Assembly: GCA_963738955.1 (NCBI GenBank)
Contig: CAVTYW010000015.1
Coordinates: 151,910 to 215,909 of the forward strand
Source: Pirellulales bacterium
Lineage (GTDB): Bacteria > Planctomycetota > Planctomycetia > Pirellulales > DATAWG01
DNA length: 64,000 nucleotides
Reading direction: 5' to 3'
Part shown: positions 21,266-44,914 of the stretch, piece after piece
Layout of the letters: each line of letters begins with the position of its first letter
Position numbering within the stretch: position 1 is the stretch's first letter
The notes under the pieces: model-generated
The model's input: only the letters and a program-made list of their open reading frames with translations
What the model was told of the DNA's origin: nothing
Databases searched by the model: none
Position numbers and translations under genes: made by a program

Positions 21266-21684
21266 GCAGACGCACAAGCGGTGAAATCGGACCGTCCGAA
21301 GCGATGGGCCCTTTCCCCAAAAGGGGTTATGAATCGCCGACACGCCGATTGAATCGCCGGCTGACGGTGGATTGGCGGATTTCGTGGCCTAAAAAAATCG
21401 CTTTGCTTGGCCGCAACGAACGGTTATTATGGAGAGGTTGCGTCTGTTTGGTCTAAACTCACTGCGTTCTGCGGTGGGCTGTCGGGGATGACATAGGCCC
21501 AAACAATTCCGCCACAGGGGCGATGCCAAAGTTCGTCCTATGCGCGGTGCCTATAGCGATCCCAATTTCCGCGCCTCTTGCCTTCGGCATTCCGCAAGGA
21601 ATTCCGGCTGATTGCCAGCGGGTCGATCCACCTTTGTTCCTCCTCATCGAAACTTGAAAGCTTGCGGTTCGGAGCGCTAATCTG

Positions 21685-24600
21685 GTGTACCATCCTCGTT
21701 GGCTAATCCGAATTGTCGTGGCTTTGGCAATCGCATCATTCGGCGATCGAGCGCAAGCCTTGGTCGTCGCCGGCGGTCCAACGGCCAATACCACGTCCAG
21801 CGGATTCAATAGCGTCTTTTACAACGTCGGATACATTGGCAATGGGGCCGCCGTCTATTTGGGCGACGGCTGGATGCTGACGGCAAGCCATGTCAATGTG
21901 CCGCTCGAATCCGGAATATCCGCGGGCTTCAATATTCCGGGCCTCGGCAGCCAGTATTATCAGGTCGTAAACTCGGTCCGCATCACGAGCCAATCGGGCA
22001 GCTATCCCGGCACTCCCGACTTGCAACTCGTGCAACTGGCCCAGGCGCCGCCGCTCCCCTCGATCTTTCAAACGATTCCGACATCCAGTCCGCAAACCGG
22101 GACCGTGGCGACATTGGTTGGCGGCGGCAGAGCGAATGGTGGTCCTCTCTATTGGAACAACGCCACGTCGTCCAGCAGCACGATCAACCTCGGAAATTCG
22201 TCGACCACGGCCTTCGTCGGCACACCGAATCCCATTATATCCGACACCGTTTGGACCAACGGCACCATGCCGTCGGGCACTTATCAAGACGCTGGTTTCG
22301 CTTGGAACGGCGGCAGTGGGATTCAATGGGGCGAAAGTGTAATTAGTTTCGTGAAGAATCCGGCAGCCAGCCAGGACATCTACAATTCAAACACCTTCCT
22401 GACGACGTTTTACAACTCGACCTACGATCCGCCTGCCAATTCGGCCTGGGCGCCGAGCGTGGCCGCGATCGGCTCGAACATGGCCGCGGTGGCAAGTGGT
22501 GATTCCGGCGGGGCTGCCTTTGTCAACACGGCGTCCGGATGGCGCCTGGCGGGAATGCTGGCCTACGTTGACCAATACAGCCGCAGTCAGTCGGGCTCGC
22601 CGTATCCGTCAACGGCCTATGGCGATCTTTCGTTTTCCGTGGATTTGTCCACGTATCGCAACTCGATTTTGAGTGTGATCAACTCGACGGCCACTTGGAC
22701 CGGCCAGGCCGGCAATACCTGGGACACGACTTCCGCAAGCTGGGCTGACGCTGGGCATAAGGCGGCCACGACATTCACTTCCACGGCTAGCACCGGAAAC
22801 GCCATCTTCGGAAACTCCAACCCATTGCTCGGCATTCCGCTCAATTCGTCGCTCCAGTCGATCGTCGTTCAGCCGGGAGGCGTGTCCGCGGCTTCGATCA
22901 CGTTTACGAACACCGGCAGCGCCAATGGCGGCACCGATTATTTGATCGGCGGCGGCTCGATTTCAGGCAGTCCACTTCTAAGCGGAGTCAGCGGCATCCC
23001 GAGCAACAACAGCATTGTTCTCAGCGGCAATGGCAATGGCACGGGTGGTGCGGTCTTTCTGTCAGGCGCTAACAGCTTTACGGGCGGCGTGTTGGTTGGA
23101 GTTGGCCGATTGAATTTGCAAAACAGCCTCGCGCTTGGCAACTCCTCCGGCGTTACGGTTGACGCCGGTGCCGCTCTGGAATTGCAAAATAGCGGAAGTG
23201 CGGCAACGTTCGGTCAGACCGCCACGGGATCGGTTGGAATTGGGCTCACGTTGAACGGCAGCGGCATCGGAGGAACCGGTGCCCTCGACAATCTCTCGGG
23301 CAACAACACGTATGCCGGTCCGATCACGCTCGGCTCGCCCGTCACCATCGATTCGTCTTCGGCGAGCGGCCAATTGTCGCTCACCGGCGGCATTGCCACG
23401 GCCGGCAACGCATTGACGTTCATCGGTTCCGGCAACACCTCGATCAGCGGAAGCGGCGGAATCACGGGCGGCGGCACGTTGACCAAAGCGGGCAGCGGCA
23501 CGTTGACCCTCAATTTCGCCGGCGCTGGCTCGCCGGCAAGCAATCTCCTGGCGACGAATACCGCGCTGGCTGTCGGCGGCGGGACATTGCAAGTTAACGG
23601 AGCCAACAGCGGCAGCACCAACCAAACGGTCGCCAGTCTATCAATCAATTCCGGTTCCTCGGCGATCGTCGATACATCCAACGGCGTCAGTTCGAATTTC
23701 ATCGTCACTTCTGGAACTATCGGACGCGCCGTCGGCGGCACCGTTGACTTCACGCTTCCGGCAGCCGGCAGCATCAGTTTCACAACACCACCAACACAGA
23801 CCGGCGGGATTCTCAGCGGCTGGGCCACCGTCGGCGGGGCCAGTTGGGCCACGCTCGGCGGCAATGCTTTAGCGGCCTACGGCGGCGCGACACTCGTCAG
23901 TTCCGGTTCGCAAGCGATTTCCGGCGGCACGAACTACGACATCACTGGCAGCTTCGCAGCCTCTGGGGCTGCGAATAGCCTTCGATTCGTCAATGGCGTG
24001 ACGCCGGCGATCGTTACGCTCACTGGGGCGCTTCCCATTACGACCGGTGGAATTCTCGTTCCCGCGTCGGTCAGTTCCGCCACGACAATAACCGGTGGCA
24101 CGCTGCAGGGTGCCGGCGGCGCCGATCTGGTCGTCATTCAAAACAGCGCCTCGCCGCTCACTATCTCCTCGGCCATTGCCGACAACGGCTCTCCCACGGG
24201 CCTGACCAAATCGGGCAGCGGTGCGCTTACATTGACAAGCTCCAACGGCTACACCGGCCCAACGACGTTGAACGCCGGAACGCTCAACATCAACAACTCC
24301 GCGGCCCTGGGAGTCGGAAGCTTCGTCATCAACGGCGGCACGATCGACAATACGTCCGGCAACAACTCGATCATTACCACGAACGCTGAAACGTGGAACG
24401 GCAGCTTTGCTTACCAAGGGACGAATTCTCTCGGCCAGTCGACCGGCGCAGTCACGCTGTCCACAAGCCCCACGATCACAATCAGCAACGGCGGCACTCT
24501 TAGTATCGGCGGCGCCATCGGCGGTAATTTCGGTTTGACGCTCGCCGGCTCCGGCACGCTTTCGCTCAACGGCGCGAACACGTTCACCGGCGGCGTAACG

Positions 24601-27128
24601 ATCAACGGCGGCATGTTCCGCATTGGCAATTCAGCGGCACTAAACAGCAGCACGCCGAATACAGTCACTTTCGGGCCCACGAGCGCCGGCACGCTGAATC
24701 TCAATGGCAACAGCGTCAGCGTCGGCGGCTTGAGCTCGACGTCGGCGAATGCGATCGTTGAAGCGTCGGCTCCGTTAACGGCGGCTTCGGCAATGTTGAC
24801 CATCAACGGCATCGGCAATTACGCCTTTGCCGGCAGTATCACCAACGGCGGATTGGGTCCGCTATCGCTCGCAAAGTCCGGCTCGGGAACGCAGATTCTC
24901 AGCGGCCTGAATACTTACACCGGCGGCACGACGATTAACGGCGGCGTCTTGCAGTTCAATGCCGACGCCGATCTTCCGCCAGGATTGGCCAACACCACGG
25001 TCAATAGCGGCGGCACGATCGCGGCAGGCTCGGCCATCGACCAGCCTTTTCTCACGGCTGCCCACATCACGAGCAATTCGAGCGGAACCATTGCTCTGGC
25101 CGCCAATAGCGGGAACGCCCTCAACTTCGGCGGCCTCAGCGCCAGCCTCGGTTCGACAGGCAACTACGTCTACAGCGGCGCGTTGACGCCCAACGGCTCG
25201 ACCTACATTCTCGGCGGCGGCGGCGGGTTGCTCACGTTCAGTGGAATGCTCGGCGGCGCAAATTCGCTGACGGTTCAGAATGGCGGCAATGTGGCGCTCA
25301 CCGCGTCGAATTCCTATACCGGCGGCACGACGATCAACAGCGGCACGTCGCTTTTGATTTCCGCCGACGGCAGCGCCGGCGCCAACGCCGAACTTGGCCT
25401 CGTCCCTTCGTCCGCCAGTGCGAACATCACGATCAACGGCGGCACGCTCGTCGCCACTTCCAGCTTCACGCTCAACCCGAATCGCGGCATCGTTCTGGGA
25501 GCAACGGGCGGCGCGATCGACGTTGACGGGATCGTCAACTTGAACACGCTTATCTACGGCGGCGTCGTCAGCGGAACGAGCGGCGGAAGTCTCACGCTGA
25601 CCGACACCGGAACTCTCGTCCTTAGCGGCCCCAATAGCTACAACGGCGCCACGAACATCAATTCCGGCACACTGCGTGCCGGCGCCGTCAACACGCTGCC
25701 GCAAATGTCGGCCGTCGCGCTCGGTCTCGGCGGCACGCTGCAGCTCAACGGCTTCTCGCAAAGCATCGGTTCGCTGACCGGCGGCGGCATCGTGACGAAC
25801 AATAGCTCGACTTCCGTGACGCTCACCGTCGGCAACGACGGAACCAGCCCGGCCGCGTTCTACGGCGTGCTCTCCGACACGACGGCCAGCAATACCGGCA
25901 CTTTGGCTCTGACCAAAGTCGGCGACGGCATCCTGGCCCTCAGCGGCCTGAACACTTACAGCGGCGGCACGACGGTCAGCGACGGCACCTTGGCAACCGT
26001 CGGCGGCGGCACGCTTGGCTCCGGCTCGTTGAGAATCTCCGCGACCGACGGGGTCTTTTCGAACGTAAGCATCGGCGCGACGCAGAGCGTCAGCAGCCTG
26101 ACGAATTCGGCCACCGCCAATGGATTGGCGCTATTGAGCGTGGCCTCGGGCACGACTCTCACCTCGACCGGCCCGCTAACCAACACCGGCACGCTCAATA
26201 TCGGCGCTTCTGGCTATGCCGGCATGTTGATTATCGACGGAGCGTTGACGTTCAATGCCAATAGCAAATTGCAACTGACGACCGGCACGCTGGAGTTCAA
26301 CGTCACGAGCGGCGCCGCGACGGTTCAATCAGGCGTCACCGCGACCGTGGCCGCCGGCGCTACGTTGCAACTGGCCGGCACGGTGTCGGACCTCTCCAAT
26401 GGTTCGTCGGTCGTAAACATCACCAACAACGGATCGACCGCCAGCGGCGGCGGTTTGCTCGTCACCGGCACGAAACAGACCGTCGGCACGGTCGCGGGCA
26501 ATGCCACGACTTCAAGCGGAGCGACGACCTACGCCGGCGATACAGTCGTCGCCGCCGGCGCCAGCCTGACCGCAACCCAAATCCTGCAAAACACGCTCAC
26601 CATCGGCGCAGGCGCACGGTGACGATCCAACCGTCGGGCTCGGGCGTCGTCGCCCAGCCGATCGGTGCGGCAGCGACGAGTTTGACATCGGCGTCTACAT
26701 CCGCATCGTCGCGGGAAATCGTGCAGCTACAGAATCGGATCGCAATTCTCGAACAACTCCAGGCGAATGAGTCCGCTTCAACTGCCAATCCGCTCGACGA
26801 AAGCTCGCCGTCGCTAATCGGCGCGACCATGACCGATCCGGCCGGCAGCGTCGATCCAACCATCCTGGCCAGCGAAATTGCCGTACTGCTCGAGGCTGAA
26901 AACCGGCTGCTGGCGGAAAACGACAGCCTGTCGTTGGGAACTCCGAGCGGTTCGGCCGCATTTTCTTCGCCGGATTCGCCGTCTGGGGGAAATGCCGTGC
27001 CGGAGCCCTCGGGCCTGATTTTGGGCTTGTTCGCAGCCGGTTTGGCCGCCGCCTGGGCCATTCGGCGACTTTATTCGCACCACAAGCTGGACCCGGCCCG
27101 CGAGATTTGCAACAATAGGCTTGGCTAG
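21685..27128 (+). CDS. Giant secreted protein: trypsin-like serine protease domain + autotransporter-associated beta-strand (PATR) repeats + PEP-CTERM anchor; one frame break at 26619-26622
   Basis: Signal peptide MYHPRWLIRIVVALAIASFGDRAQA. Trypsin-like motifs WMLTASHV and SGDSGGAAF. Many repeats of the type G-S-G-T-L-T-L-x-G-x-N-T-Y-T-G-G-T-T-I-N-x-G-T-L. ORFs 21685..26622 and 26619..27128 overlap at GTGA and read through as ...TLTIGAGAR|VTIQPSGSG... The C-terminus is VPEPSGLILGLFAAGLAAAWAIRR. Confidence 0.8.
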
Positions 27129-34235: not shown

Positions 34236-36196
34236 ATGATTAAAGGCCGAATCACGCCCCGTTGGTACATCTGGCGATCGATTCTCGTCGTCGGTGTTCA
34301 CTTATTGGCTTTCACCGCCGCCTATCTGTTGGCGTTCGCGCTGAAGTTCAATTTTCCACTAGAACCCCGAGAAGCCATTGCCCTGGGTCTGACGTTGCCG
34401 GGCGTGCTGATGATCAAGGCCCTGGTGTTTTATCTGACGGGCCAATATCGGCTGTCGTGGCAAAGCGTCACGTTTTCCGATCTGGCGTCGCTGATAAAAG
34501 CGGCCACCTTGTCGCTGCTGGCGATCTTCGTGCTGTATTACCTCGTCGAGCCGAATCGCACGCTCGGCCGGGCGATCCCGCTGCTCGACTGGATGATGAC
34601 GATTTTGATTCTCGGCGCGTTGCGGGCGTTTCATCGCATGTCGCGTGAGGAGATACGGTTTTTCTACCGGCCTTCCGACGCGCGCAAAGCACTGATCGTC
34701 GGCGCGAATCAATCGGGCCACAATTTGGCCCGGCATCTGTACACCGCCGAGCCGCCGCAATACCTGGTCCTCGGGTTCCTCGATACGGATGTCAAGCGAT
34801 TTGGATCGCTTCATGCCGGATTGCCGGTGCTCGGCTCTCCCGAACAGGGGCCGAAAATCGCCGTGCGGTTGGACGTGCAGGAAGTTCTCGTGATGTCGGG
34901 CAGTCTGACGGGCAAGGAGTTGCGGCAATTGATGGAAGGCTGCGCGCAGGTCGATGTGACGCTGAAGGTCATCCCGGCGTTGGAAGACCTCGTGGCGGGC
35001 GACTTTTCGGTGCAGATTCGCGACGTCGATATCAACGACCTGCTGCGCCGCGAGCCGGTGCAACTGAACAGCGATGCGATCAGCACGCTGCTGGAAGGAC
35101 GAACCGTGCTGGTGACCGGCGCCGGCGGCAGCATCGGCTCGGAAATTTGCCGGCAGGTGCTCGAGTTCCGTCCGAGCCGACTGGTGCTGGTCGAACGGGC
35201 CGAAAACAGTCTGTTTCTCATCGAGCAGGAATTGCTCCGATCGAAGACCGAGACGGCGATCATTCGCTTGCATCGCCGACATCACCGACGCGGCGCGGAT
35301 CGACCAGATTTTCGCGGAGCATCAGCCGGCCGTCGTGTTCCACGCCGCGGCGCACAAGCACGTGCCGATGATGGAATCGAATCCCGGCGAGGCGATCAAG
35401 AACAACGTGCTCGGCACGCAGCAACTGGCCGAGTTGGCCGACGCATCACGGCGTGCAGGAGTTCGTCATGATCTCGACCGACAAGGCGGTCAATCCGACG
35501 AGCGTGATGGGCGTGTCGAAGCAAATTGCCGAGCGGTTCGTGCATGCGTTTTCCGAAGTGGCGACGACGAAGTTCGTCGTCGTGCGGTTCGGCAACGTGC
35601 TGGCCTCGACCGGCAGCGTCGTGCCGATCTTCCAGGAGCAGATCCGCCGCGGCGGTCCGATCACCGTCACGCATCCGGAGATCGAACGCTTCTTCATGAC
35701 GATTCCCGAGGCCTCGCAGTTGGTGCTGCAGGCGGCCGCGATGGGCAAGGGAGGCGAGATCTTCGTGCTCGACATGGGCGAATCGGTGCGAATCGTCGAT
35801 CTGGCCCACGACCTGATCCGCCTGTCGGGCCTGGAGCCCGACGACATCGAGATCGTTTTCACCGGCCTGCGTCCGGGCGAGAAGCTCTACGAGGAATTGT
35901 ATTTCGACGACGAAGAAATGCTTCCGACGCCGCATCCCAAACTGTTCGTGGCTTATCATCGACCTTATCATTTGGCGGAAGTCAATGGCTTGATCGAAGG
36001 CCTGGCGGCGACTGTTCACGAGCCGTCGGAAGTCGTTTGCCGGCGCTTGCGCGAATTGGTTCCCGAATATGTCCCGCCGGCGGACGAGCAATCGGCGGAG
36101 CTGCAAGCGGCTCATTCGCGGCCGATCGTCGAATCGGCCAACGGCAGCGGCCACGCGGCGGAATCGACGACTTCGGATTCTGGCCGCCAATCGTGA
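34236..36196 (+). CDS. Membrane-bound polysaccharide biosynthesis protein CapD/PglF/WbpM-type (NDP-sugar 4,6-dehydratase family), two frame breaks (~35271, ~35446)
   Basis: N-terminal TM helices, then [58 protein letters not shown] and FFMTIPEA. The parts lie in track ORFs 34236.., 35335.. and 35453..36196. Confidence 0.8.
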
Positions 36197-36231
36197 CCCA
36201 ACCGTCGATCTTGTCCGGTGCGATTGAAGAA

Positions 36232-37275
36232 ATGTCGCGGCGAGTATTGATCGCCGGATACGGATCCGTCGGCCGGAGGCACGTGCGAAATCTACAGTCG
36301 CTCGGCTACTCCCAACTGATGTTTTTTAGAACTCGTCGCGGCACGATGCCGGACGACAATGCGTCGCAGAATGGCAAGTCGGCATGGCCCGAGGTTGACG
36401 AATTGGAGGCCGCGTGGTCGCAACGGCCGCGAATCGCCGTGATCTCGAATCCGAGTGCGTCGCATATTGGAGTTGCGTTGGCCGCGGCTCGGAATGGCTG
36501 CGATTTGTTCATCGAGAAACCGTTGTCCGATTCGCTTAACGGCTGCGAGGAGCTGGCCGAAATCGTTCGGCAAAAAAATCTCGTGGCGATGATCGGTTGC
36601 CAATACCGATTTCATCCGCTGCTCGTTCGCTTGCGCCAGCGATTGGCGGCCGGCGAACTGGGGCCGATCGTGGGGGCGCGAGCCGAGTGGGGCGAGTATT
36701 TGCCCGACTGGCATCCTTGGGAGGATCATCGGAAAAGTTATAGCGCCCGAGCCGACATGGGGGGCGGCGTCGTGCTGACGCTCATCCATCCGCTCGATTA
36801 TTTGTATTGGCTGTTCGGCCCAGCCGATCGGGTACATGCCTCGACGCGCGCGATCGCTTCGCTGCAAACTCCGGCCGGCGAGGATTGGGCCGAGATTACG
36901 ATCGATTTTCGCTCGGGCGTCGTCGGGCAAGTTCACCTCGACTATTTGCAACGTCCCGCGGTCCATCGTCTGACGGTTTGGGGCGAGCGCGGTCGAGTGG
37001 AATGGGACTATCATGCCGGCACGCTTCGTTGGGAGACCGTCGCCGCGACAGGTCCGAATAGTGCATCGGCGATCGACGGGGATTCAACCGTCACAATCGA
37101 ACACGTTCCGGCCGGTTTCGAACGCAATACGATATTCCTCGACGAAATGCGACATTTCCTGAACTGCGTCGAGAGCCGCGAAACCCCCGCCGTTCCGTTG
37201 GCCGACGGCATCGCCGTGTTGGAAATGGCGTTGGCAGCGAAGCAAAGTGCCCGGGAAGCGACTCGACATGCCTAA
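36232..37275 (+). CDS. Gfo/Idh/MocA-family oxidoreductase
   Basis: The ATG at 36232 gives MSRRVLIAGYGSVGRRHVRNL (Rossmann fold). CDLFIEKPL is the family EKP motif. Confidence 0.8.
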   Translation: MSRRVLIAGYGSVGRRHVRNLQSLGYSQLMFFRTRRGTMPDDNASQNGKSAWPEVDELEAAWSQRPRIAVISNPSASHIGVALAAARNGCDLFIEKPLSDSLNGCEELAEIVRQKNLVAMIGCQYRFHPLLVRLRQRLAAGELGPIVGARAEWGEYLPDWHPWEDHRKSYSARADMGGGVVLTLIHPLDYLYWLFGPADRVHASTRAIASLQTPAGEDWAEITIDFRSGVVGQVHLDYLQRPAVHRLTVWGERGRVEWDYHAGTLRWETVAATGPNSASAIDGDSTVTIEHVPAGFERNTIFLDEMRHFLNCVESRETPAVPLADGIAVLEMALAAKQSAREATRHA

Positions 37276-38114
37276 TCCGCCCTCGAATTCGCTGCCGTCG
37301 CTCTTCGATCTGACCGGCCGCGTCGTGATCCTGACCGGCGGCGCCGGCCTGCTGGGCAAGCAGTATACGCGGGCCCTGCTCAGCGCCGGGGCGCGAGTTG
37401 TCGTCGCCGATTTGCAAGCCGAGGCGGCAATCGCGGCGGCTCGTGCGGCCGCTGATGAAATGGGGGGCGAGTCGCTGGGCATCGGTGTCGATGTCACGCG
37501 GAACGACGACGTCGAGCGGATGGTTGCCGCGGTGCTCGACCGCTGGGGGCGCATCGACATCCTGGTGAACAACGCCGCCATCGATCCGAAATTCGACGCC
37601 GGTGTCGCCCAGCAGCAAGCCAACACGTTCGAGGAATATCCGCTCGCGCTGTGGCAGCAATCTCTGGATGTCAACTTGACGGGCGCATTTCTCTGCTGCC
37701 AGGCCGTCGGCCGGGCGATGGTGCGACAAAAGCGTGGAGTGATCGTGAACGTGAGCTCCACGTATGGCGTCGTCGCGCCCGATCAACGGCTTTATCAACG
37801 CGACGACGAAGCGGAGCAAACGCTGTTCAAGCCGGCCGCGTATGCCGTGACCAAAGCCGGCATCGCTCATTTCACCCGTTACCTGGCAACGTATTGGGCT
37901 GCCGACGGAATTCGCGTGAACACATTGACGCCGCATGGAATTTACAACGCCCAAGACGAGCAATTCGTTCGCCGCTACAACGAGCGCTGCCCGATGGGAC
38001 GCATGGCGACGGGTTGACGAAATGAACGGCCCGCTGCTGTTCTTGGCATCCGATGCTTCGTCGTACATGACCGGTTCCAATCTGGTTGTCGATGGAGGTT
38101 GGACCGCGTGGTAG
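37268..38114 (+). CDS. Short-chain dehydrogenase/reductase (SDR), frame break near 38012
   Basis: [18 protein letters not shown] and [16 protein letters not shown] (YxxxK). The C-terminus [27 protein letters not shown] is recovered in the next frame. Confidence 0.75.
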
Positions 38115-39410
38115 ATCGGCCGGAAGTGTTGGCGATCGTGCAAGCTCGCGGGGGCTCGAAGGGGCTGCCGCGCAAGAACGTGTTGCCGCTCGGCGGTCAT
38201 CCGCTGGTGGCATACAGCATTGCCAGCGGTCTCGCCTCCGAATCGATCACGCGCTTGATCGTGTCGACCGACGACGACGAGATCGCGGCGGTCGCTGAGC
38301 GATATGGCGCGGAGATTCCGTTTCGCCGGCCCGCGGATTTGGCGGCCGACGATACGCCCGACTATCCGTTGTTCGTCCATGCGCTGGATTGGCTCGAACG
38401 CGAGGAAAACTACCGGCCCGACGTGGTTGTGCAACTGCGGCCGACGACTCCGCTTCGTCCGCATGGATTGTTGGACGAGGCAGTGCGGATGTTGTTGAAC
38501 GACCCGCGGGCGGATTGCGTCCGCGGAGTGACGATCCCCAAGCAGACGCCCTACAAAATGTGGCGCGACGCGGCCGATGGCTATCTGGCTGCCGTTGATG
38601 GACACCGGTTTTCCAGAGCCCTACAACATGCCGCGGCAAAAACTGCCGGCCGCGTATTGGCAGACGGGCCACGTCGACGCCATCCGCGCCACCTCCATTC
38701 GTCAAAAGCATTCCCTTACCGGCGATCATGTTCGACCGGTGTTAATTGAGCTAAGTTACTGCGTCGATATCGATACTTTGGCCGATTTCGAATTGGCCCA
38801 GCAAGTGATCGATCGCAAGCATTTGCAAATCGACATGCCTTGCCCGCTCGATGGCCGACAGCGACGGCAATGGCCCGCGTTGGTCGATTTGGTTGTGTTC
38901 GATTTCGACGGCGTGATGACCGACAACCGGGTGTTGGTGTTCGACGACGGCGGCGAGGCGGTGCTCTGCGATCGCAGCGACGGCCTGGGCGTGTCGATGC
39001 TCCGCAAGCGAGGCCTGGAGATGGCGGTGCTGTCGACGGAGACGCATCCGGTCGTCGAAGCACGGTGCCGTAAACTCGGCATCGCTTGCCGCCAAGGTCT
39101 GGCCGACAAGCAAGCGGCGCTCGTGGCTTTGGTTCGCGAACGAAAGGTCGGCCTGGAAAACACGATTTACGTCGGCAACGACGTGAACGATCTTGGCTGT
39201 TTTGAATCGGCGGGGTTTGCGATTGCCGTCGCCGACGCGCATCCAAGCGCCTTGGCGCGAGCCGATTTCGTGTTGTCGCGGCCGGGGGGCCAAGGGGCCG
39301 TGCGCGAGTTGTGTGATTTGTTGTTGAAAATGTGCCTGCGGAAAGAAGCGGCATGTGTCCATCCTGCAAACTGTGAAAACGGAAAAAGCGAGAACGGCAA
39401 CAATGCCTAG
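38099..39410 (+). CDS. Fusion: acylneuraminate (nonulosonate) cytidylyltransferase + KdsC-type HAD phosphatase; frame break near 38580
   Basis: The N-terminal [31 protein letters not shown] is CMP-NulO synthetase type. The C-terminal half has [12 protein letters not shown]..., VGNDVNDL and [34 protein letters not shown]. That half is collinear with E. coli KdsC as I recall it. Confidence 0.8.
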
Positions 39411-40299
39411 AACGATCGAACTCGGGGGCCGGCCGGTCGGCGCCGGAGAGCCCGTCTATGTGATCGCCGAAATCGGCATCAACCATAACGGCAGCCTGGA
39501 GATCGCGCAAGCGGCTGATCGACCTGGCCAAGGCGAGCGGCTGCGACGCGGTCAAGTTCCAGAAACGAACGCCGGAGAAGTGCGTGCCCGCGGAAATGCG
39601 CGACAAGATGCGCGACACACCCTGGGGCTACATTTCCTACATGGATTATCGCTACAAGATCGAATTCGGCCGCGACGAATTCCAGCAAATCGACAACTAT
39701 TGCCGGGCCCAGAAGATCGCCTGGTTCGTGTCGTGCTGGGATACCGATTCGGTTGCGTTTCATCGAAGCAATTCAATACGCCCTGTCTGAAGATTCCGTC
39801 GGCGTCGCTGACCGATCGGGAATTGCTGGAAGCGGTTCGCGCGACCGGCCGGCCGATGATGCTTTCGACCGGCATGTCGTCGATGGAGCAAATCGAGACG
39901 GCCGTCGGTGTGTTGGGCACTGATCGGCTGCTGTTGGCTCATGCCACAAGCACGTATCCGTGCCCAAAGGAAGAATTGAACCTGCGAATGATCACCACGT
40001 TGCTGAACCGCTACGATTGCCCGATCGGATATTCGGGCCACGAAGTCGGACTGGCGACGACCGTCGCGGCGATTGCCTTGGGCGCGTCGTTCATCGAGCG
40101 CCATATCACGCTCGATCGAGCGATGTGGGGCAGCGATCAGGCGGCTTCAATCGAGCCGCAAGGCTTGAAGCGATTGGTGAAAGACATCCGCAACGTGGAG
40201 AGCGCGTTCGGTGACGGCCGCAAACAGGTTTATCCCAGCGAAGTCATCGCCGCCAGCCGCCTGCGATTGAAAGATACGCTCGGGGCAAAAAAGAAGTAA
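39403..40299 (+). CDS. NeuB-family nonulosonate (sialic-acid-type) synthase; central ~260 nt out of frame (breaks ~39510 and ~39770)
   Basis: The ATG at 39403 gives [35 protein letters not shown]... The middle segment is recovered in track ORF 39584..39790 (RDTPWGYISYMDYRYKIEF...AWFVSCWD). Further on come CLKIPSASLTD, MLSTGMS and GYSGHE. No SAF-type C-terminal domain is evident. Confidence 0.8.
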   Translation: MPRTIELGGRPVGAGEPVYVIAEIGINHNGSLEIAQAADRPGQGERLRRGQVPETNAGEVRARGNARQDARHTLGLHFLHGLSLQDRIRPRRIPANRQLLPGPEDRLVRVVLGYRFGCVSSKQFNTPCLKIPSASLTDRELLEAVRATGRPMMLSTGMSSMEQIETAVGVLGTDRLLLAHATSTYPCPKEELNLRMITTLLNRYDCPIGYSGHEVGLATTVAAIALGASFIERHITLDRAMWGSDQAASIEPQGLKRLVKDIRNVESAFGDGRKQVYPSEVIAASRLRLKDTLGAKKK

Positions 40300-40320: not shown

Positions 40321-41316
40321 TTGCAAGAAAAACGCCCATTTCGGAATCTCACGGTGAACGACAAGTTCTGGAAAAACAAACGCGTCTTGGTGACCGGCGG
40401 ATCGGGGTTCGTCGGCCGCTGGGTTGGCCGTGCGCTGTGCGGCGCCGGCGCCGAATTTCACATCCTCGACATTGTGCCTCCGCAGGGCTTTTCCGAACCG
40501 TTCACGCTGCATCGTGCCGATTTGCGCAATTTGGACGCCGTCGTCCAACTGCTCGAACAGACGCGGCCGGCGGTCATCATTCATCTGGCCGGGCAGCCGG
40601 GAGTGTCGGTGTCGCACGATCAGCCGGTGTCCGCTTACGAGAGCAATGTGCTGGCGACGTTCAATTTGCTGGAGGCGGCAAGGCAAAAGAGAGCCGATCG
40701 AGAACTGCTGGCGATCGTTGCCGTCTCGAGCAATCATGTCTACGGCCATCAAGATCATCGGCCGACGGTCGAATCCGCGGCACTGAACGGCGCCGGCATG
40801 TACGCCGCGTCGAAGCTTTGCGGCGACGTGTTGGCCCGCTCGTATGGAAAGAGTTATGGCCTTCCGGTCGGCATCGCGCGGATGACCAATTCCTACGGCG
40901 GCGACGATCATCATGTCGCTCATATCATAACGGGCTCGATTCTTTCGACATTGCGGGGCGAACGGCCGGTGATCAAGCAAAGTGGCCGCGACCTCAAAGG
41001 GTATCTGTATATCGAAGACACGGTCGCCGGATTGCTGGCCGTTGCCGAAGGCGTTGCCGGCTCGGCGGACCTGGCAGGCGAGGCGTTCAACCTCGTTCCC
41101 GACGAGGCGATCACGACGCTGGAACTTGTTCGAGCGATCGTCGCGGCGGCCGACGCCAATCTGGAGCCGATCGTTCAGAATCCTGGCGCGGCGCACGAAG
41201 AAGAGTTCTTGGACAACGCAAAAGCCCGGCGGCTGCTGGCCTGGAGGCCGCGACACGATTTGGGCGCCGGCCTGCGCAAGACAATCGATTGGTATCGACG
41301 ATCTAGCGGCGCGTGA
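40321..41316 (+). CDS. NAD-dependent epimerase/dehydratase (CDP-/NDP-hexose 4,6-dehydratase-like)
   Basis: FWKNKRVLVTGGSGFVGRWV and YAASKLCGD (YxxxK). Intact 331-aa ORF. Confidence 0.8.
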   Translation: MQEKRPFRNLTVNDKFWKNKRVLVTGGSGFVGRWVGRALCGAGAEFHILDIVPPQGFSEPFTLHRADLRNLDAVVQLLEQTRPAVIIHLAGQPGVSVSHDQPVSAYESNVLATFNLLEAARQKRADRELLAIVAVSSNHVYGHQDHRPTVESAALNGAGMYAASKLCGDVLARSYGKSYGLPVGIARMTNSYGGDDHHVAHIITGSILSTLRGERPVIKQSGRDLKGYLYIEDTVAGLLAVAEGVAGSADLAGEAFNLVPDEAITTLELVRAIVAAADANLEPIVQNPGAAHEEEFLDNAKARRLLAWRPRHDLGAGLRKTIDWYRRSSGA

Positions 41317-42995
41317 GGCGCCGTACATGCAAGCAACGAATGGAACAGAGCGAACAACAGCCAGCGCCAGCCGCGCCGGTTCCGCCCGACGTGCTTTCGC
41401 CAAGGGACCAATTCGCCGACGCGACGCTGCCGGAGGTGTCGCTGCCCGACATGCGGTCGCCCGAGGCGCTGCCGACGGACGCGCCACTAGAGACAGTTCC
41501 CTCGCCGGAGTCGCCGCTACCGATCGGCTCGTCGCGCAATCAGGGCTACTTCCGCCGCGTCGTCGGCGGAACGTTCAACTATGGGTTGGGACAGAGCCTG
41601 CCCAAAGTACTGCGATTCGTTTTGAATTTCACGTTGTTCGTGAGAATCCTCAGTCCGAGGGACTTTGGGCTCATCGATTTGGCCACTGCGCTCACTGCGT
41701 TCCTCATGACTCCGATGCGGATGGGAGTTACCGGAGCCGTGACGCGGTTTTACTACGAGTACCCGGAAGGTCCGTCGCTCAAGGATTATGTGACGACCGT
41801 GGCCTGGTTTCTGGCGGTTTCCGGCCTGACCGTCGGTTTAGCGGCGTTTGCAATTGGGCCGTGGTTGCTGAGACACTTCATTCCCGAGTTGCCGTTCGTT
41901 CCGTTCGCGGTTTTGGCAATTCTCTCCGGGTTGCTCTACTGCAATATGGAATTGCAGGATCGGCTGGTGCAAGCTCGCGAACAATCGGGCTATGCGGCTC
42001 GCTTGAGCATTGGGCGAGCCAGCATCGCGATCTTGCTGGCCGTGCTGTTCGTGGCTGGGCTGCATTGGGGTGCCGCGGGGCTTCTGTCTTCCGAAGCCGC
42101 GTCGTACGGCGCGCTCGCGCTCGTGGCGGCTTATTATTTGCGAACGGAGCTAAAGGGCCGATTTCGCTGGCCGATGTTGCGGTCGTCGCTGGCCTATGGC
42201 ATGGCATTGGTGCCGGGCGATTTTGCCGGAAGCCTGACGCCGCTGGTGACACGAGGGATTCTAACGGTCTCCAAATCGGTGGCCGACACGGGTATTTTGG
42301 GGATCGCCACGAGATTGACCCAGCCCCTGACGATACTGGGATTCGCCTTCCAGACCGCTTTCAATCCGATCTATTTTTCGCTGCGCAAACAGTCGACAGC
42401 GTCGGGCATGCAACGACTGGCCGTAACGGCGCGCAATGTTTGGGCGTTGGCGATCTTCGGCGCCCTTGGCGTGGCGCTGGTGGGACCATCGGCAGTTCTC
42501 TTGTTGCCGAGCGATTATCACCCGGCGGCAAGGTTGCTACCGATCGTGGTCGTGGGTTTTTTGGGAATGGTCATCGGTTGTTTGTTCAATCCCGAGATTT
42601 ATTACAGCAAGCAAACATGGTGGGTGCCGGTCGCGGTTTACAGTTCCGCGGCGGTCGATATTACGATCTCCTCGCTAACCGTCGGTCGCTATGGGGCGGC
42701 TGGCGTGGCCTGGGGAACTGCACGCGCAGCGCTCGTGAGCTCCATCGTGCTCGCAATCGTCTCCCTGCGGTTGGTCAAGATTCCACACCAATGGTTCAGC
42801 CTGCTGCGGATCACCTTATGCGGAGCAGCAGCCGGCTCCGTCCCGCTTTGGATGTCGCACGAGGGCGGTCTTGCGGAATTTGGGATCGGCGTGGCGGGCG
42901 TCGCACTGTTTCCGATCTTGCTTTGGGTGACCGGCGACTCGAGTGTCCGCGAAGGACTGCATCTGCTGCGACGGCAGGTGGCGAAAGTATTCTAG
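41313..42995 (+). CDS. Polysaccharide flippase (Wzx/MOP-family-like) with Pro/Ser-rich N-terminal extension
   Basis: Multiple predicted TM helices after residue ~75. GLGQSLPKVLRFVLNFTLFVRILSPRDFGLIDLA is typical of O-unit flippases. An alternative ATG lies at 41340. Confidence 0.7.
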   Translation: MRRRTCKQRMEQSEQQPAPAAPVPPDVLSPRDQFADATLPEVSLPDMRSPEALPTDAPLETVPSPESPLPIGSSRNQGYFRRVVGGTFNYGLGQSLPKVLRFVLNFTLFVRILSPRDFGLIDLATALTAFLMTPMRMGVTGAVTRFYYEYPEGPSLKDYVTTVAWFLAVSGLTVGLAAFAIGPWLLRHFIPELPFVPFAVLAILSGLLYCNMELQDRLVQAREQSGYAARLSIGRASIAILLAVLFVAGLHWGAAGLLSSEAASYGALALVAAYYLRTELKGRFRWPMLRSSLAYGMALVPGDFAGSLTPLVTRGILTVSKSVADTGILGIATRLTQPLTILGFAFQTAFNPIYFSLRKQSTASGMQRLAVTARNVWALAIFGALGVALVGPSAVLLLPSDYHPAARLLPIVVVGFLGMVIGCLFNPEIYYSKQTWWVPVAVYSSAAVDITISSLTVGRYGAAGVAWGTARAALVSSIVLAIVSLRLVKIPHQWFSLLRITLCGAAAGSVPLWMSHEGGLAEFGIGVAGVALFPILLWVTGDSSVREGLHLLRRQVAKVF

Positions 42996-43016: not shown

Positions 43017-44914
43017 ATGAAGCTAATCGTTCTTTCCGTGGGAAAGCTTCCGCCTGGGAGGCTGTCGCGCTGGTCGCGAGACCCGGATTGCATCGTTATC
43101 GCAATACGGCCGATGCACGAAGGCGGCGAGGATTGGATTCGGCCGCCGATCAGCATGACGTCGAAAGTGTCGCTGAGCCGGCGGAATACGCAATTGTTCG
43201 AGCCCTGGTTCGACGCGAAATTGGAAAACACGGATGTTCGTTTGCCGGGCGCCAGGATCGGCTTCCTCGAGGCGGCAAATTGCCAGCTCTTTTTCCAAGT
43301 ATGGAATTGCCTTGGACTGTTGTTGGATCTCGAGCAAGTCGTCCAGCAGCAGCAAATTGATCGGATCGAATTCGTGACGGACAACGCACACAATGGACGG
43401 TGGCCGATCGTGGTTCGCGCCTTTGCCGAGGCGCATCGATTGTCCTGGCGGGCGATCGCTCTGTCTCGGACCGGCGAGAATCTTGGACTCGGCGGCTTCG
43501 AGCGACTTCGCGGTTGGTTGGCTCAATCGCCGGCGCGGATTCCTTCGATCATCCGACTGCTCCGCGAGCAAGTCGTTCGACGCGATCGAACCGCCGGCGA
43601 TTCATCGCCTCAAAGGCCGGCAATGGCGACTGCGAACGCGACTGGCATGGATGGCAACTCGAAGCGCTTGCATGCGGCGATGCTCGTATACGTCCCCAAG
43701 TCGTGGCGGTACTTGCTTCCGATCCGCTCGGCTTTGCTCGAGTCGGGGCATGAAGTCTCGATGCTCAGTCCTCGCAAGGCGACCGACGTTGCCTTGGAAG
43801 AAGTGAATTGCCCCTACACTTCACTCCGATTGCGCCGAGATGGAACGCGATTTCACCGAGTGGTCGAAGAATGCTTGACGCGCTGTCCGCTCAATCCGCC
43901 CGACGCGGAATTAGCGAAATTGGCCCGCGCGGATGGGCCGTTGCGTCGGCTGCTGGGGCAGCTCGGCCGCGGACTCTTCGAGGACTATGCGAATGTAGCC
44001 GTCCGATTGCCGGCCTTGTTTTTCGATCGCCACGTCAACGTGGCGCTTGGCACCGATTGTGGCTCCGTGGCGGGCCGGAGTTTCTTTCGGACCGCGGAGC
44101 GCCTCGGAATCGCATCGGTCTTCATTCAACACGGGGCCTTGCACGGCGGAATGGGAACGCCCGAATACTTCACCGATGCCAAGCGTTTGGTGTGGGGCGA
44201 TTCGCGCGCGATCTGCTGCTGACGGCGGGCCTGCCGAATCCGGAAGCAACGGTGGTGATCGGGTCGCCTCGTCAAGAGGAGATATTGTTGCCGCAACGAA
44301 CGACCGCAATGCGGAGCGACCGGCCGCGGAAGGCGGATTCCGCCGACATGATTCTCGTCACCTTCGGAGTTCCCGGCAATTTCATCGCGGAAGCGTCCTT
44401 TGCCAGGGCGGCGAGCGAGGTGTTCGCGGCAGCCGCCGAATTGCCGAATGTCCGCTTCATGATCCGGCCTCATCCGAGCGATCGCGGGTTGGTTTGGAAG
44501 GAGCTGATCTCGGACTGCCGATTGCCGAATGTCATGCTGTGCAGCGACGGCGACACGTATGCCCTGATCCATGAATGTCGAATGCTGGTGACGATGGCTT
44601 CGACCACGGGCGCCGAGGCGATCTTTTTAGGTAAGCCGGTGGTGGCCGTCAATCTGGAGCAGCAGGAAACCGAACTCGATTACATCGGGTCGGGCGCTGC
44701 TTACCTCGCCAGTGCGCCGGGCGAATTGAGCACGATGCTGAAAACGGTGTTGGCCGTCCCGCAAGGGACCGACGCTTTGGCCGACGCTCGCCGGGCGTTT
44801 GCGGAGCAGTTCTTGCACGTCGAGCCGCGGCCGGCCGCCGAGCGGATCGTCGATTATCTCCGCGAACTTGTTTTCCCAATCCCGCGCGAAACATCTCGCC
44901 AGATGAAATCCTGA
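43017..44914 (+). CDS. Hypothetical GT-B-like transferase (TagF/Capsule_synth-like C-terminal half), frame break near 44200
   Basis: Track ORFs 43017..44222 and 43808..44914 join at ...[18 protein letters not shown]... The C-terminal half has a nucleotide-sugar-binding-like layout: [11 protein letters not shown]...[20 protein letters not shown]. The family assignment is only by eye. Confidence 0.4.

Follow-up and report, generated by a model that had tools for sequence, protein, structure and literature searches.

We analysed a 64,000-nucleotide stretch of DNA from a Pirellulales bacterium (G000:C15:151910-215909, hereafter the window; positions are counted from its first letter). The parent assembly, G000, comprises 6.97 Mb in 36 contigs. 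A four-gene cassette in the window of this soil planctomycete probably directs the synthesis of an activated, acidic nine-carbon sugar for the cell surface, most likely 3-deoxy-D-glycero-D-galacto-non-2-ulosonic acid (Kdn), via a phosphorylated intermediate. In order, the cassette encodes a Gfo/Idh/MocA oxidoreductase, a PtmA-like short-chain dehydrogenase/reductase (SDR), a fusion of a cytidine monophosphate (CMP)-nonulosonate synthetase with a C0-type haloacid dehalogenase (HAD) phosphatase, and a NeuB-type synthase without a SAF domain. Judging from the predicted proteins and their relatives, we hold with moderate confidence the combined view that the cassette makes a CMP-nonulosonate through a 9-phosphate intermediate, that the sugar is likely Kdn, and that the breaks in the reading frames are errors.

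A synthetase and a phosphatase encoded by one gene

The gene at 38108-39410 joins an N-terminal cytidylyltransferase domain (PF02348) to a C-terminal HAD domain of the KdsC/YrbI type, as indicated by Pfam and NCBIfam. Its parts are the following.

38108 to 38593, + strand: N-terminal two thirds of the CMP-nonulosonate synthetase (CTP_transf_3) domain (PF02348; 92% identity to residues 1-169 of P0001)
38588 to 38592, + strand: site of a surplus letter, where the frame of the fusion gene switches (tblastn frames; DNA ctggct-g-ccgttg)
38595 to 39410, + strand: remaining synthetase domain, linker and C0-type KdsC-like HAD domain in one open frame (87% identity to residues 144-433 of P0001)

Pfam placed CTP_transf_3 in 38099-38749 (E 4.6e-20) and Hydrolase_3/HAD in 38577-39410. 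The probable start codon is the GTG at 38108, the codon of the HAD nucleophile Asp lies at 38901-38903, and the stop codon of the fusion at 39408-39410. P0001, an intact metagenome protein of 433 aa, aligns in two frames, with residues 1-169 in +2 and residues ~163-433 in +3.

The original prediction, made from the DNA alone, had described a CMP-nonulosonate synthetase/KdsC-like HAD fusion beside a NeuB-family synthase. Both the Pfam matches and the overlapping genes bear this out, and the HAD signature that it quoted is found in the translation. It had also obtained a single frame after one indel correction. One surplus letter is indeed present at about 38588-38592, but the fusion needs no correction: a single open frame, 38532-39407, runs from the C-terminal part of the cytidylyltransferase domain through the linker and across the entire HAD domain.

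The best NCBIfam model for the HAD domain was KdsC (NF007019), at 118.5 bits for a cut-off of 208. TIGR01670 gave 101.0 bits (cut-off 106.95), or 102.6 bits when the whole genome was searched, and one relative, P0005, passed this cut-off with 113.9 bits. The model of the Kdn 9-phosphate (Kdn-9-P) phosphatases of BT1713 type (NF058599, cut-off 180) gave 72.1 bits, and 66-84 bits for three intact relatives. The best solved relative was an uncharacterised HAD protein (3MMZ, 137 bits). A genuine, separate KdsC is encoded elsewhere in the genome, on contig C11 (157 bits).

For the synthetase domain, PseF scored 137 bits and the KdsB models 29-37 bits, all of them below cut-off. Matching structures were 6IFD (125 bits), 9FTB, 1EYR and 1QWJ; no KdsB structure was matched at E 1e-5 in this PDB search. 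By these scores the domain is predicted to be of NeuA type rather than of KdsB type.

A short NeuB-type synthase

The ATG of the synthase gene overlaps the 3' end of the fusion gene by 8 bases, and Pfam NeuB matches in 39355-40299 with an E value of 6.5e-55. The reading frame was followed with the help of P0122, an intact NeuB relative of 297 aa.

39403 to 40299, + strand: SAF-less NeuB-family synthase, about 297 aa when the frame is followed (Pfam NeuB in two frames; 92-97% identity per segment to P0122)
39505 to 39510, + strand: first frame switch, one surplus letter (alignment to P0122; loose ends of related contigs read GCC AAG CGG, the window GCG C AAG CGG)
39762 to 39769, + strand: second frame switch, surplus letters at 39762 and 39769 (a short-read contig, record 9 of run X2, lacks exactly both)

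Removing the letters at 39762 and 39769 restores the frame F-L-E-E-F, matching P0122. The three surplus letters amount to a net +3; the open reading frame (ORF) therefore stays open with 84 codons misread. Neither these letters nor the broken neighbouring genes had been reported in the original prediction.

Among the matches listed, 119 homologues of 228-304 aa carry PF03102 only, and a SAF domain was found in none of them. Intact relatives of this short NeuB scored 256-264 bits on TIGR03569 (NeuB equivalog, cut-off 399.65) and 208-210 bits on TIGR03586 (PseI equivalog, cut-off 340.25), so neither cut-off is reached. SAF-less NeuB homologues have previously been recognised as an environmental group, according to PMC8208679. 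As curated equivalog thresholds were missed, the module is not assigned to the exact NeuB, PseI, KdsC or BT1713-phosphatase families. Two further NeuB-family matches in the genome, at G000:C17:594372-594938 and G000:C27:179323-179907, are weak (34-36 bits, barely above the Pfam cut-off).

Evidence for a phosphorylated intermediate

The linkage between phosphatase and synthase was examined from the synthase side, in 80 metagenome loci found with the short NeuB. In 55 of these, the sequence ahead of NeuB is at least 1400 nt long. Of the 55, 49 have a KdsC-like HAD no more than 2.5 kb upstream and 4 have one elsewhere in the locus; in the other 2, none was found. A cytidylyltransferase domain lies upstream in only 30. 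Since the HAD is present in 53 of 55 loci but the synthetase is upstream in 30, it is the phosphatase that accompanies the short NeuB, whether fused or free. The phosphatase and the tail-less synthase thus form a tightly linked pair across phyla.

The HAD motif DxDGVxTD, the Ser and the Lys are invariant in all 107 full-length HAD homologues, and motif IV (N-D-x-N-D) is kept in 106; all are present in the window. From these motifs (I-IV), the domain is predicted to be catalytically competent. In vertebrate CMP-sialic acid synthetase, the C-terminal domain is reported to serve oligomerisation and not catalysis. A domain of this kind here, attached to a pathway whose synthase uses a free sugar, appears very improbable. 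Although the architecture is that of the vertebrate enzyme, and PMC8636478 calls the role of the vertebrate C-domain unknown, the invariance of the catalytic residues disfavours a merely structural HAD, and in many loci a free-standing HAD lies beside the synthase, unattached to any synthetase.

The original prediction had proposed comparing the HAD residues with those of KdsC and of the Kdn-9-P phosphatase, and this comparison hints at the latter. The sequence of BT1713, read by eye from the DNA in supplement file 3 of PMC6200933, has Asp10, Asp12, Thr54-Gly55-Glu56, Arg64 and Lys67. The PDB match (query 12-164 on chain 4-157) sets the register: at the sites equivalent to Glu56, Arg64 and Lys67, Glu, Arg and Lys are found in the window protein and in all 107 homologues. 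The genome's own KdsC and the KdsC structures 2R8E/3I6B, 7T35, 4UM5 and 3N07 have Arg at the position-56 site and, where read, Glu or Thr at the position-67 site. When a 46-residue piece of the HAD domain was searched against the PDB, BT1713 was not among the matches.

These comparisons also bear on an eight-carbon product. In such a second route to 3-deoxy-D-manno-octulosonic acid (Kdo), arabinose 5-phosphate would be condensed with phosphoenolpyruvate (PEP), the 8-phosphate removed and CMP-Kdo formed. The overall HAD score is indeed closest to KdsC models and structures. However, the HAD domain has Glu where KdsC has Arg, the synthetase domain scores far better as PseF than as KdsB and matched no KdsB structure, and the genome already has its own full-score KdsC. 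Moreover, the cassette is common in Anaerolineae, which are not known to make lipopolysaccharide. A Kdo-like product is thus very unlikely.

For the synthase, the closest functional guide is the Prymnesium Kdn-9-P synthetase, which uses mannose 6-phosphate (Man-6-P) and not mannose, according to PMC6200933. Counted by eye on the published sequence, this enzyme ends 47 residues after the SLEP motif, compared with 46 residues in the window NeuB, and therefore has no SAF domain. An S-G-H motif is found in the Prymnesium enzyme and in all 119 short-NeuB homologues among the matches listed; the corresponding motif is S-D-H in 6NCS, PseI and SpsE. The likeliest substrate predicted from these features is a sugar 6-phosphate (Man-6-P), not a free sugar.

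In the proposed pathway, the short NeuB would first join PEP to a hexose 6-phosphate, giving a nonulosonate 9-phosphate; the hexose 6-phosphate would most likely be Man-6-P, or a derivative of it produced by both oxidoreductases. The C-terminal HAD domain of the fusion would then strip the phosphate, and the N-terminal domain of the same protein would couple the free sugar to CMP. Finally, transfer of the sugar to a surface polysaccharide would fall to a downstream GT-B (glycosyltransferase B-fold) protein and to the Wzx/Wzy proteins encoded in the cluster at 34-88 kb.

A 9-phosphate route, like that to Kdn in Bacteroides and to sialic acid in animals, had already been put forward in the original prediction. 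It is strengthened by the HAD-NeuB linkage, the invariant motifs, the matches to BT1713 and Prymnesium and the lack of a NeuC-like gene in 80 loci; what needs amending is that the indel is not a feature of the gene and that the breaks in NeuB had been missed.

Frame breaks

At least 10 frame switches occur within 15 kb, about one per 1.5 kb of coding sequence, across many unrelated genes. Measured against intact orthologues in a related locus (L013), the frame shifts twice in the PglF-like gene that opens the cluster, once in the SDR gene and four times in an AsnB gene. Genes past the end of the window are also frame-broken. Most of the switches are single surplus letters lying outside homopolymer runs. 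The indel for which the original prediction had corrected the fusion gene is thus one of many in a noisy assembly.

The fusion and NeuB are each a single uninterrupted frame in two relatives, G001 (same genus) and G002 (same family). Despite its 36 contigs, G000 is only 60.7% complete, compared with 96-99% for G001 and G002. Short reads were checked in three soil runs of one study (word shares 0.05-0.10), whose contigs cover 8, 10 and 4 of 30 bins. Among these contigs, none spans the indel at ~38590 or bridges 39505-39510. The proportion of G+C at third codon positions (GC3) proved too weak a criterion for real frames and was left unused.

Because the genes are intact in G001 and G002, because one contig lacks two of the surplus letters, and because completeness is low, we read the breaks as assembly noise, with high confidence. 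Loss of the pathway through true frameshifts, making these genes pseudogenes, is improbable. It would account for the four surplus letters in the two genes, and the indel of the synthetase gene is uncovered by any independent contig. However, switches occur at the same rate in many unrelated genes of the cluster, the segments between them are 87-97% identical to intact relatives with no further decay, and the low completeness affects an assembly of only 36 contigs. A frameshift, split gene or pseudogene in G000 should therefore be suspected first as an assembly error, not as biology.

A conserved cassette with two oxidoreductases

The two genes upstream of the fusion are the following.

36226 to 37275, + strand: Gfo/Idh/MocA oxidoreductase, first gene of the cassette, intact (Pfam GFO_IDH_MocA N and C; 59% identity to L013 in one frame)
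37247 to 38111, + strand: PtmA-like SDR, second gene of the cassette (adh_short, E 1e-42; NF006619, 148 bits for a cut-off of 255; two-frame alignment to L013)

The called SDR ORF ends early, at 38017, because of a frame switch near 37968-38071.

The surroundings of the fusion were compared in 80 genome loci, some of which are on truncated contigs. An SDR gene lies within 6 kb of the fusion start in 76 of the 80, mostly about 0.8 kb upstream; the short NeuB follows just downstream in 71, and a Gfo/Idh/MocA gene lies within 6 kb in 47. In Hyphomicrobium (L016) and in Poribacteria (L073), the bare four-gene cassette stands amid unrelated genes. When tblastn was run with the genome's own WecB and DegT, none of the 80 loci yielded a WecB/NeuC-like gene and 2 yielded a DegT gene, a search that distant forms of NeuC may escape. 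A Pfam scan of eight loci likewise found no NeuC-like gene, apart from the GT-B-like protein of L013. The longest-ORF caller chose some wrong-strand ORFs in high-GC loci, so the Pfam picture of L013, L027 and L033 is incomplete. In G000 itself, a PF02350 search found nothing of the NeuC/LegG type, the sole full match being a non-hydrolysing WecB. The original prediction had noted that the window has no NeuC, aminotransferase or N-acetyltransferase; this stands for the part scanned (34.2-64 kb), the first 34 kb having had no family-library scan.

It had also suggested that the Gfo/Idh/MocA and SDR proteins tailor the precursor. Conserved synteny backs their membership of the pathway. Otherwise, this pair is known only beside the synthetase of legionaminic acid clusters. 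A legionaminic acid pathway was considered and rejected: the LegB/LegC/LegH/LegG set is not next to the synthase, and WecB-like and DegT genes are as rare in the 80 loci as given above.

Through an oxidation-reduction step such as epimerisation or reductive amination, the pair may remodel either the hexose 6-phosphate that enters the condensation or the nine-carbon sugar that results from it. It is conceivable, although we consider it a minority possibility, that the cassette is a self-contained route from central metabolism to an undescribed CMP-nonulosonate isomer and not to plain Kdn. If so, such an isomer would be widespread in soil and sediment bacteria of at least 6 phyla. Once solved in a cultured carrier, the role of the pair would define the sugar displayed by thousands of environmental genomes.

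Two loci, L012:8115-10004 from a Gemmataceae metagenome-assembled genome (MAG) and L017:8181-10004 from an alphaproteobacterial MAG, have the Gfo/Idh/MocA and SDR domains in one ORF of 608-630 aa. This may be a natural fusion, in which case it would argue for joint action of the two oxidoreductases.

Distribution

Relatives of the fused protein, of about 410 aa and with the same two Pfam domains, account for 5806 matches among the 8000 candidates scored. In a species-representative collection, at least 428 species genomes carry the fusion, a relative being encoded in 428 of the 600 stretches that matched. Its carriers include Planctomycetia, Gemmataceae, Hyphomicrobium and other Alphaproteobacteria, many Anaerolineae, Vicinamibacterales, Gemmatimonadales and Poribacteria; Thermanaerothrix daxensis and Longilinea arvoryzae are cultured Anaerolineae carriers. 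More distant fusions (32-37% identity) are found on replicons of cultured rhizobia and roseobacters, where they are annotated as acylneuraminate cytidylyltransferase. Thus, the fusion build is common and already annotated in cultured bacteria. Only 2 of 30 relatives of G000 match over both domains (G001 and G002, both of the same family), which makes the cassette an accessory trait of a variable glycan locus.

A second, common architecture in the metagenome loci consists of an SDR gene, a free-standing KdsC-like HAD and a short NeuB, with no cytidylyltransferase directly upstream. It is found in L114, L115, L117, L119, L120, L131, L143, L148, L153, L154 and L159, among others, and its free-standing HADs are about 30-36% identical to the fused domain.

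With this cassette, a Pirellulales-type planctomycete joins the many environmental bacteria that apparently make a sialic-acid-like sugar by a route once thought typical of animals. The original prediction had called such a sugar on a planctomycete surface notable. This part of it is weak, as nonulosonic acids on a planctomycete surface-layer protein, together with the CMP-activated form, have been reported for Ca. Kuenenia, where they were shown chemically (10.1101/2020.12.03.409086). In the literature searched, which left most subscription papers outside, we found no description of the cassette or of its oxidoreductase pair. Since the module is widespread and already annotated, the practical value of the finding is modest.

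Nature of the sugar

The product predicted from these genes is most likely CMP-Kdn, or else a near relative of it that may be an epimer. Of these, Kdn would be the simplest, because Man-6-P is a central metabolite and the cassette has no gene for an N-acetylated or aminated precursor.

Several points weigh against the proposed Kdn pathway. No biochemical datum was found for any member of the clade. The whole-domain HAD score is closer to KdsC (118 bits) than to the Kdn-9-P phosphatase model (72 bits), and BT1713 ranks only 13th among the PDB matches of the HAD domain. Glu56, Arg64 and Lys67 are reportedly the specificity residues of BT1713 (Lu et al. 2009), an assignment that is assumed here. 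The product may not be Kdn, since the near-universal SDR and the frequent Gfo/Idh/MocA protein are absent from the known three-enzyme Kdn pathway. Related fusions in Marinovum adjoin an N-acylglucosamine 2-epimerase, which by analogy of context hints at a sugar of the N-acetylneuraminic acid (Neu5Ac) type in some lineages. As for the frame breaks, the contig that lacks the letters at 39762 and 39769 differs from the window at 11 other places in 151 letters and belongs to a relative, not to the same strain, and no contig covers the indel of the synthetase gene.

The Marinovum genes lie on a 52-kb plasmid, pMaD10 of Marinovum algicola (L173, 6980-10151), where the genes for a CST-I-type sialyltransferase and an N-acyl-D-glucosamine 2-epimerase come after the cytidylyltransferase-HAD fusion.

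Neu5Ac could be made by the same phosphorylated route, with N-acetylmannosamine 6-phosphate (ManNAc-6-P) and PEP giving Neu5Ac 9-phosphate, followed by dephosphorylation and CMP activation as in animals. The fused architecture is that of the vertebrate CMP-sialic acid synthetase, the mouse C-domain (3EWI) matching at 62.7 bits; the Marinovum algicola context fits as well, and Leptospira has been proposed to have an animal-like route with a synthase-phosphatase fusion, according to PMC3438082. However, no source of ManNAc-6-P was seen: a search of G000 did not reveal NanE and gave a marginal match to AGE (22.5 bits), both results being limited by the noise of the assembly. The sole Epimerase_2 gene encodes the non-hydrolysing WecB, and the 8 annotated cassette loci have no kinase, epimerase or acetyltransferase. 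Finally, SAF-less synthases do not have the domain bearing the conserved Arg314 that belongs to the substrate cavity of N. meningitidis NeuB, as PMC8208679 describes it. We therefore regard Neu5Ac as unlikely, if less so than a Kdo-like sugar, and retain Kdn or a close relative as the predicted product.

Genomic setting

The cassette belongs to a surface-polysaccharide cluster on the + strand, which runs from ~34.2 kb to the window end and at least 20 kb further. Further features of the cluster in the window are the following.

34236 to 36196, + strand: PglF/CapD-like membrane UDP-sugar (uridine diphosphate-sugar) 4,6-dehydratase, Polysacc_synt_2 (Pfam pieces; three-frame alignment to the intact L013 orthologue)
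40321 to 41316, + strand: NAD-dependent epimerase/dehydratase, similar to nucleoside diphosphate (NDP)-hexose 4,6-dehydratases (Pfam, NCBIfam)
41313 to 42995, + strand: Wzx-type flippase, Polysacc_synt (Pfam)
43017 to 44914, + strand: GT-B-like 'surface carbohydrate biosynthesis protein' in two ORFs (TIGR04396, 77.6 bits for a cut-off of 125; BFO_1060 glycosyltransferase domain)

The PglF-like gene is the first of the cluster, and its conservation upstream of the cassette is restricted to planctomycete loci. The NDP-hexose 4,6-dehydratase-like gene lies within 6 kb in 4 of 80 loci, its linkage to the cassette being seen in planctomycete relatives only. The GT-B-like protein, which has weak matches to Capsule_synth and Epimerase_2 and an intact counterpart of 598 aa in L013, is a candidate transferase for the CMP-activated sugar.

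The cluster, all on one strand, spans at least 50 kb (window 34200-64000 and positions 1-20000 of L011, that is G000:C15:215910-235909). It includes two AsnB-like amidotransferases, two ATP-grasp proteins, a low-molecular-weight phosphotyrosine phosphatase, a sulfatase-family protein, two nucleotidyltransferases, a polysaccharide deacetylase, a Wzy-like protein and a carbamoyltransferase. Beyond the window end it continues with WecB, a WecC-like dehydrogenase, a membrane-bound O-acyltransferase (MBOAT, DltB-like) adjoining a fatty acyl-AMP ligase, DegT, a priming phosphotransferase and a GDP-fucose synthase. Taken together, this gene set suggests a heavily decorated glycan (amidated, acylated and carbamoylated).

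The non-hydrolysing WecB lies ~6.5 kb past the window end, within the same cluster. The DegT-type aminotransferase lies ~12.4 kb past the window end, ~37 kb downstream of NeuB, beside the priming transferase. The PglF-like dehydratase, the DegT protein with the priming phosphotransferase (12-15 kb past the window end) and the WecB and WecC-like pair most plausibly act on other sugars in the repeat unit. Upstream of the cluster, a 1654-codon open frame was observed on the + strand at 21658-26619.

Comparison with known systems

Legionaminic acid clusters resemble the cassette in having an SDR and a Gfo/Idh/MocA protein beside the CMP-nonulosonate synthetase: PtmA (SDR) and PtmF (Gfo/Idh/MocA) flank the synthetase LegF in Table 5 of PMC4481668. 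In Legionella adelaidensis, a synthetase lies together with a Gfo-like fragment and with an SDR that shares 32% identity with that of the cassette, on a 'plasmid' where the remainder of the legionaminic cluster is not present. In contrast to legionaminic acid clusters, the cassette lacks LegG/NeuC, LegC, LegH and the nucleotidyltransferase, its synthase is SAF-less, and a phosphatase is present.

KdsC, the Kdo 8-phosphate phosphatase, shares its C0 HAD fold family with the window HAD, which over the whole domain scores best against KdsC. These scores remain below the equivalog and subfamily cut-offs. The window domain also differs in having Glu for Arg two residues after the Thr of motif II (Glu in 107 of 107 homologues), Lys for Glu/Thr at the equivalent of BT1713 position 67, and N-D-x-N-D for D-D-x-x-D.

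Vertebrate CMP-sialic acid synthetase (CMAS) has the same order of domains, an N-terminal synthetase and a C-terminal KdsC-like HAD, and the mouse structures 1QWJ and 3EWI are matched. The relationship is distant (56-63 bits); the window HAD keeps every catalytic residue, whereas the vertebrate C-domain is reported to be non-catalytic.

On pSymB of Sinorhizobium meliloti ml28, a short NeuB-family gene adjoins a cytidylyltransferase-HAD fusion of 389 aa, in a capsule locus with sialyltransferase-like genes; the pair is already annotated by PGAP (the Prokaryotic Genome Annotation Pipeline). This locus differs from the cassette in its identity (~34%), in that the synthase gene comes first, and in having no Gfo or SDR gene.

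Finally, the Kdn pathways of Bacteroides thetaiotaomicron (BT1714 synthase, BT1713 phosphatase and CMP-Kdn synthetase) and Prymnesium parvum comprise the same three steps that are proposed here. The cassette departs from them in the fusion of its phosphatase to the cytidylyltransferase, in its two extra conserved oxidoreductases and in a HAD score below the cut-off of the BT1713 model. However, BT1713 is likewise a C0 HAD of the YrbI/KdsC family, and its residues 56, 64 and 67 are the same Glu, Arg and Lys. The Prymnesium Kdn synthase, to judge from its published sequence, is SAF-less and carries S-G-H, as does the window synthase. Neither pathway, as described, needs a NeuC or an aminotransferase, and the same is true of the cassette.

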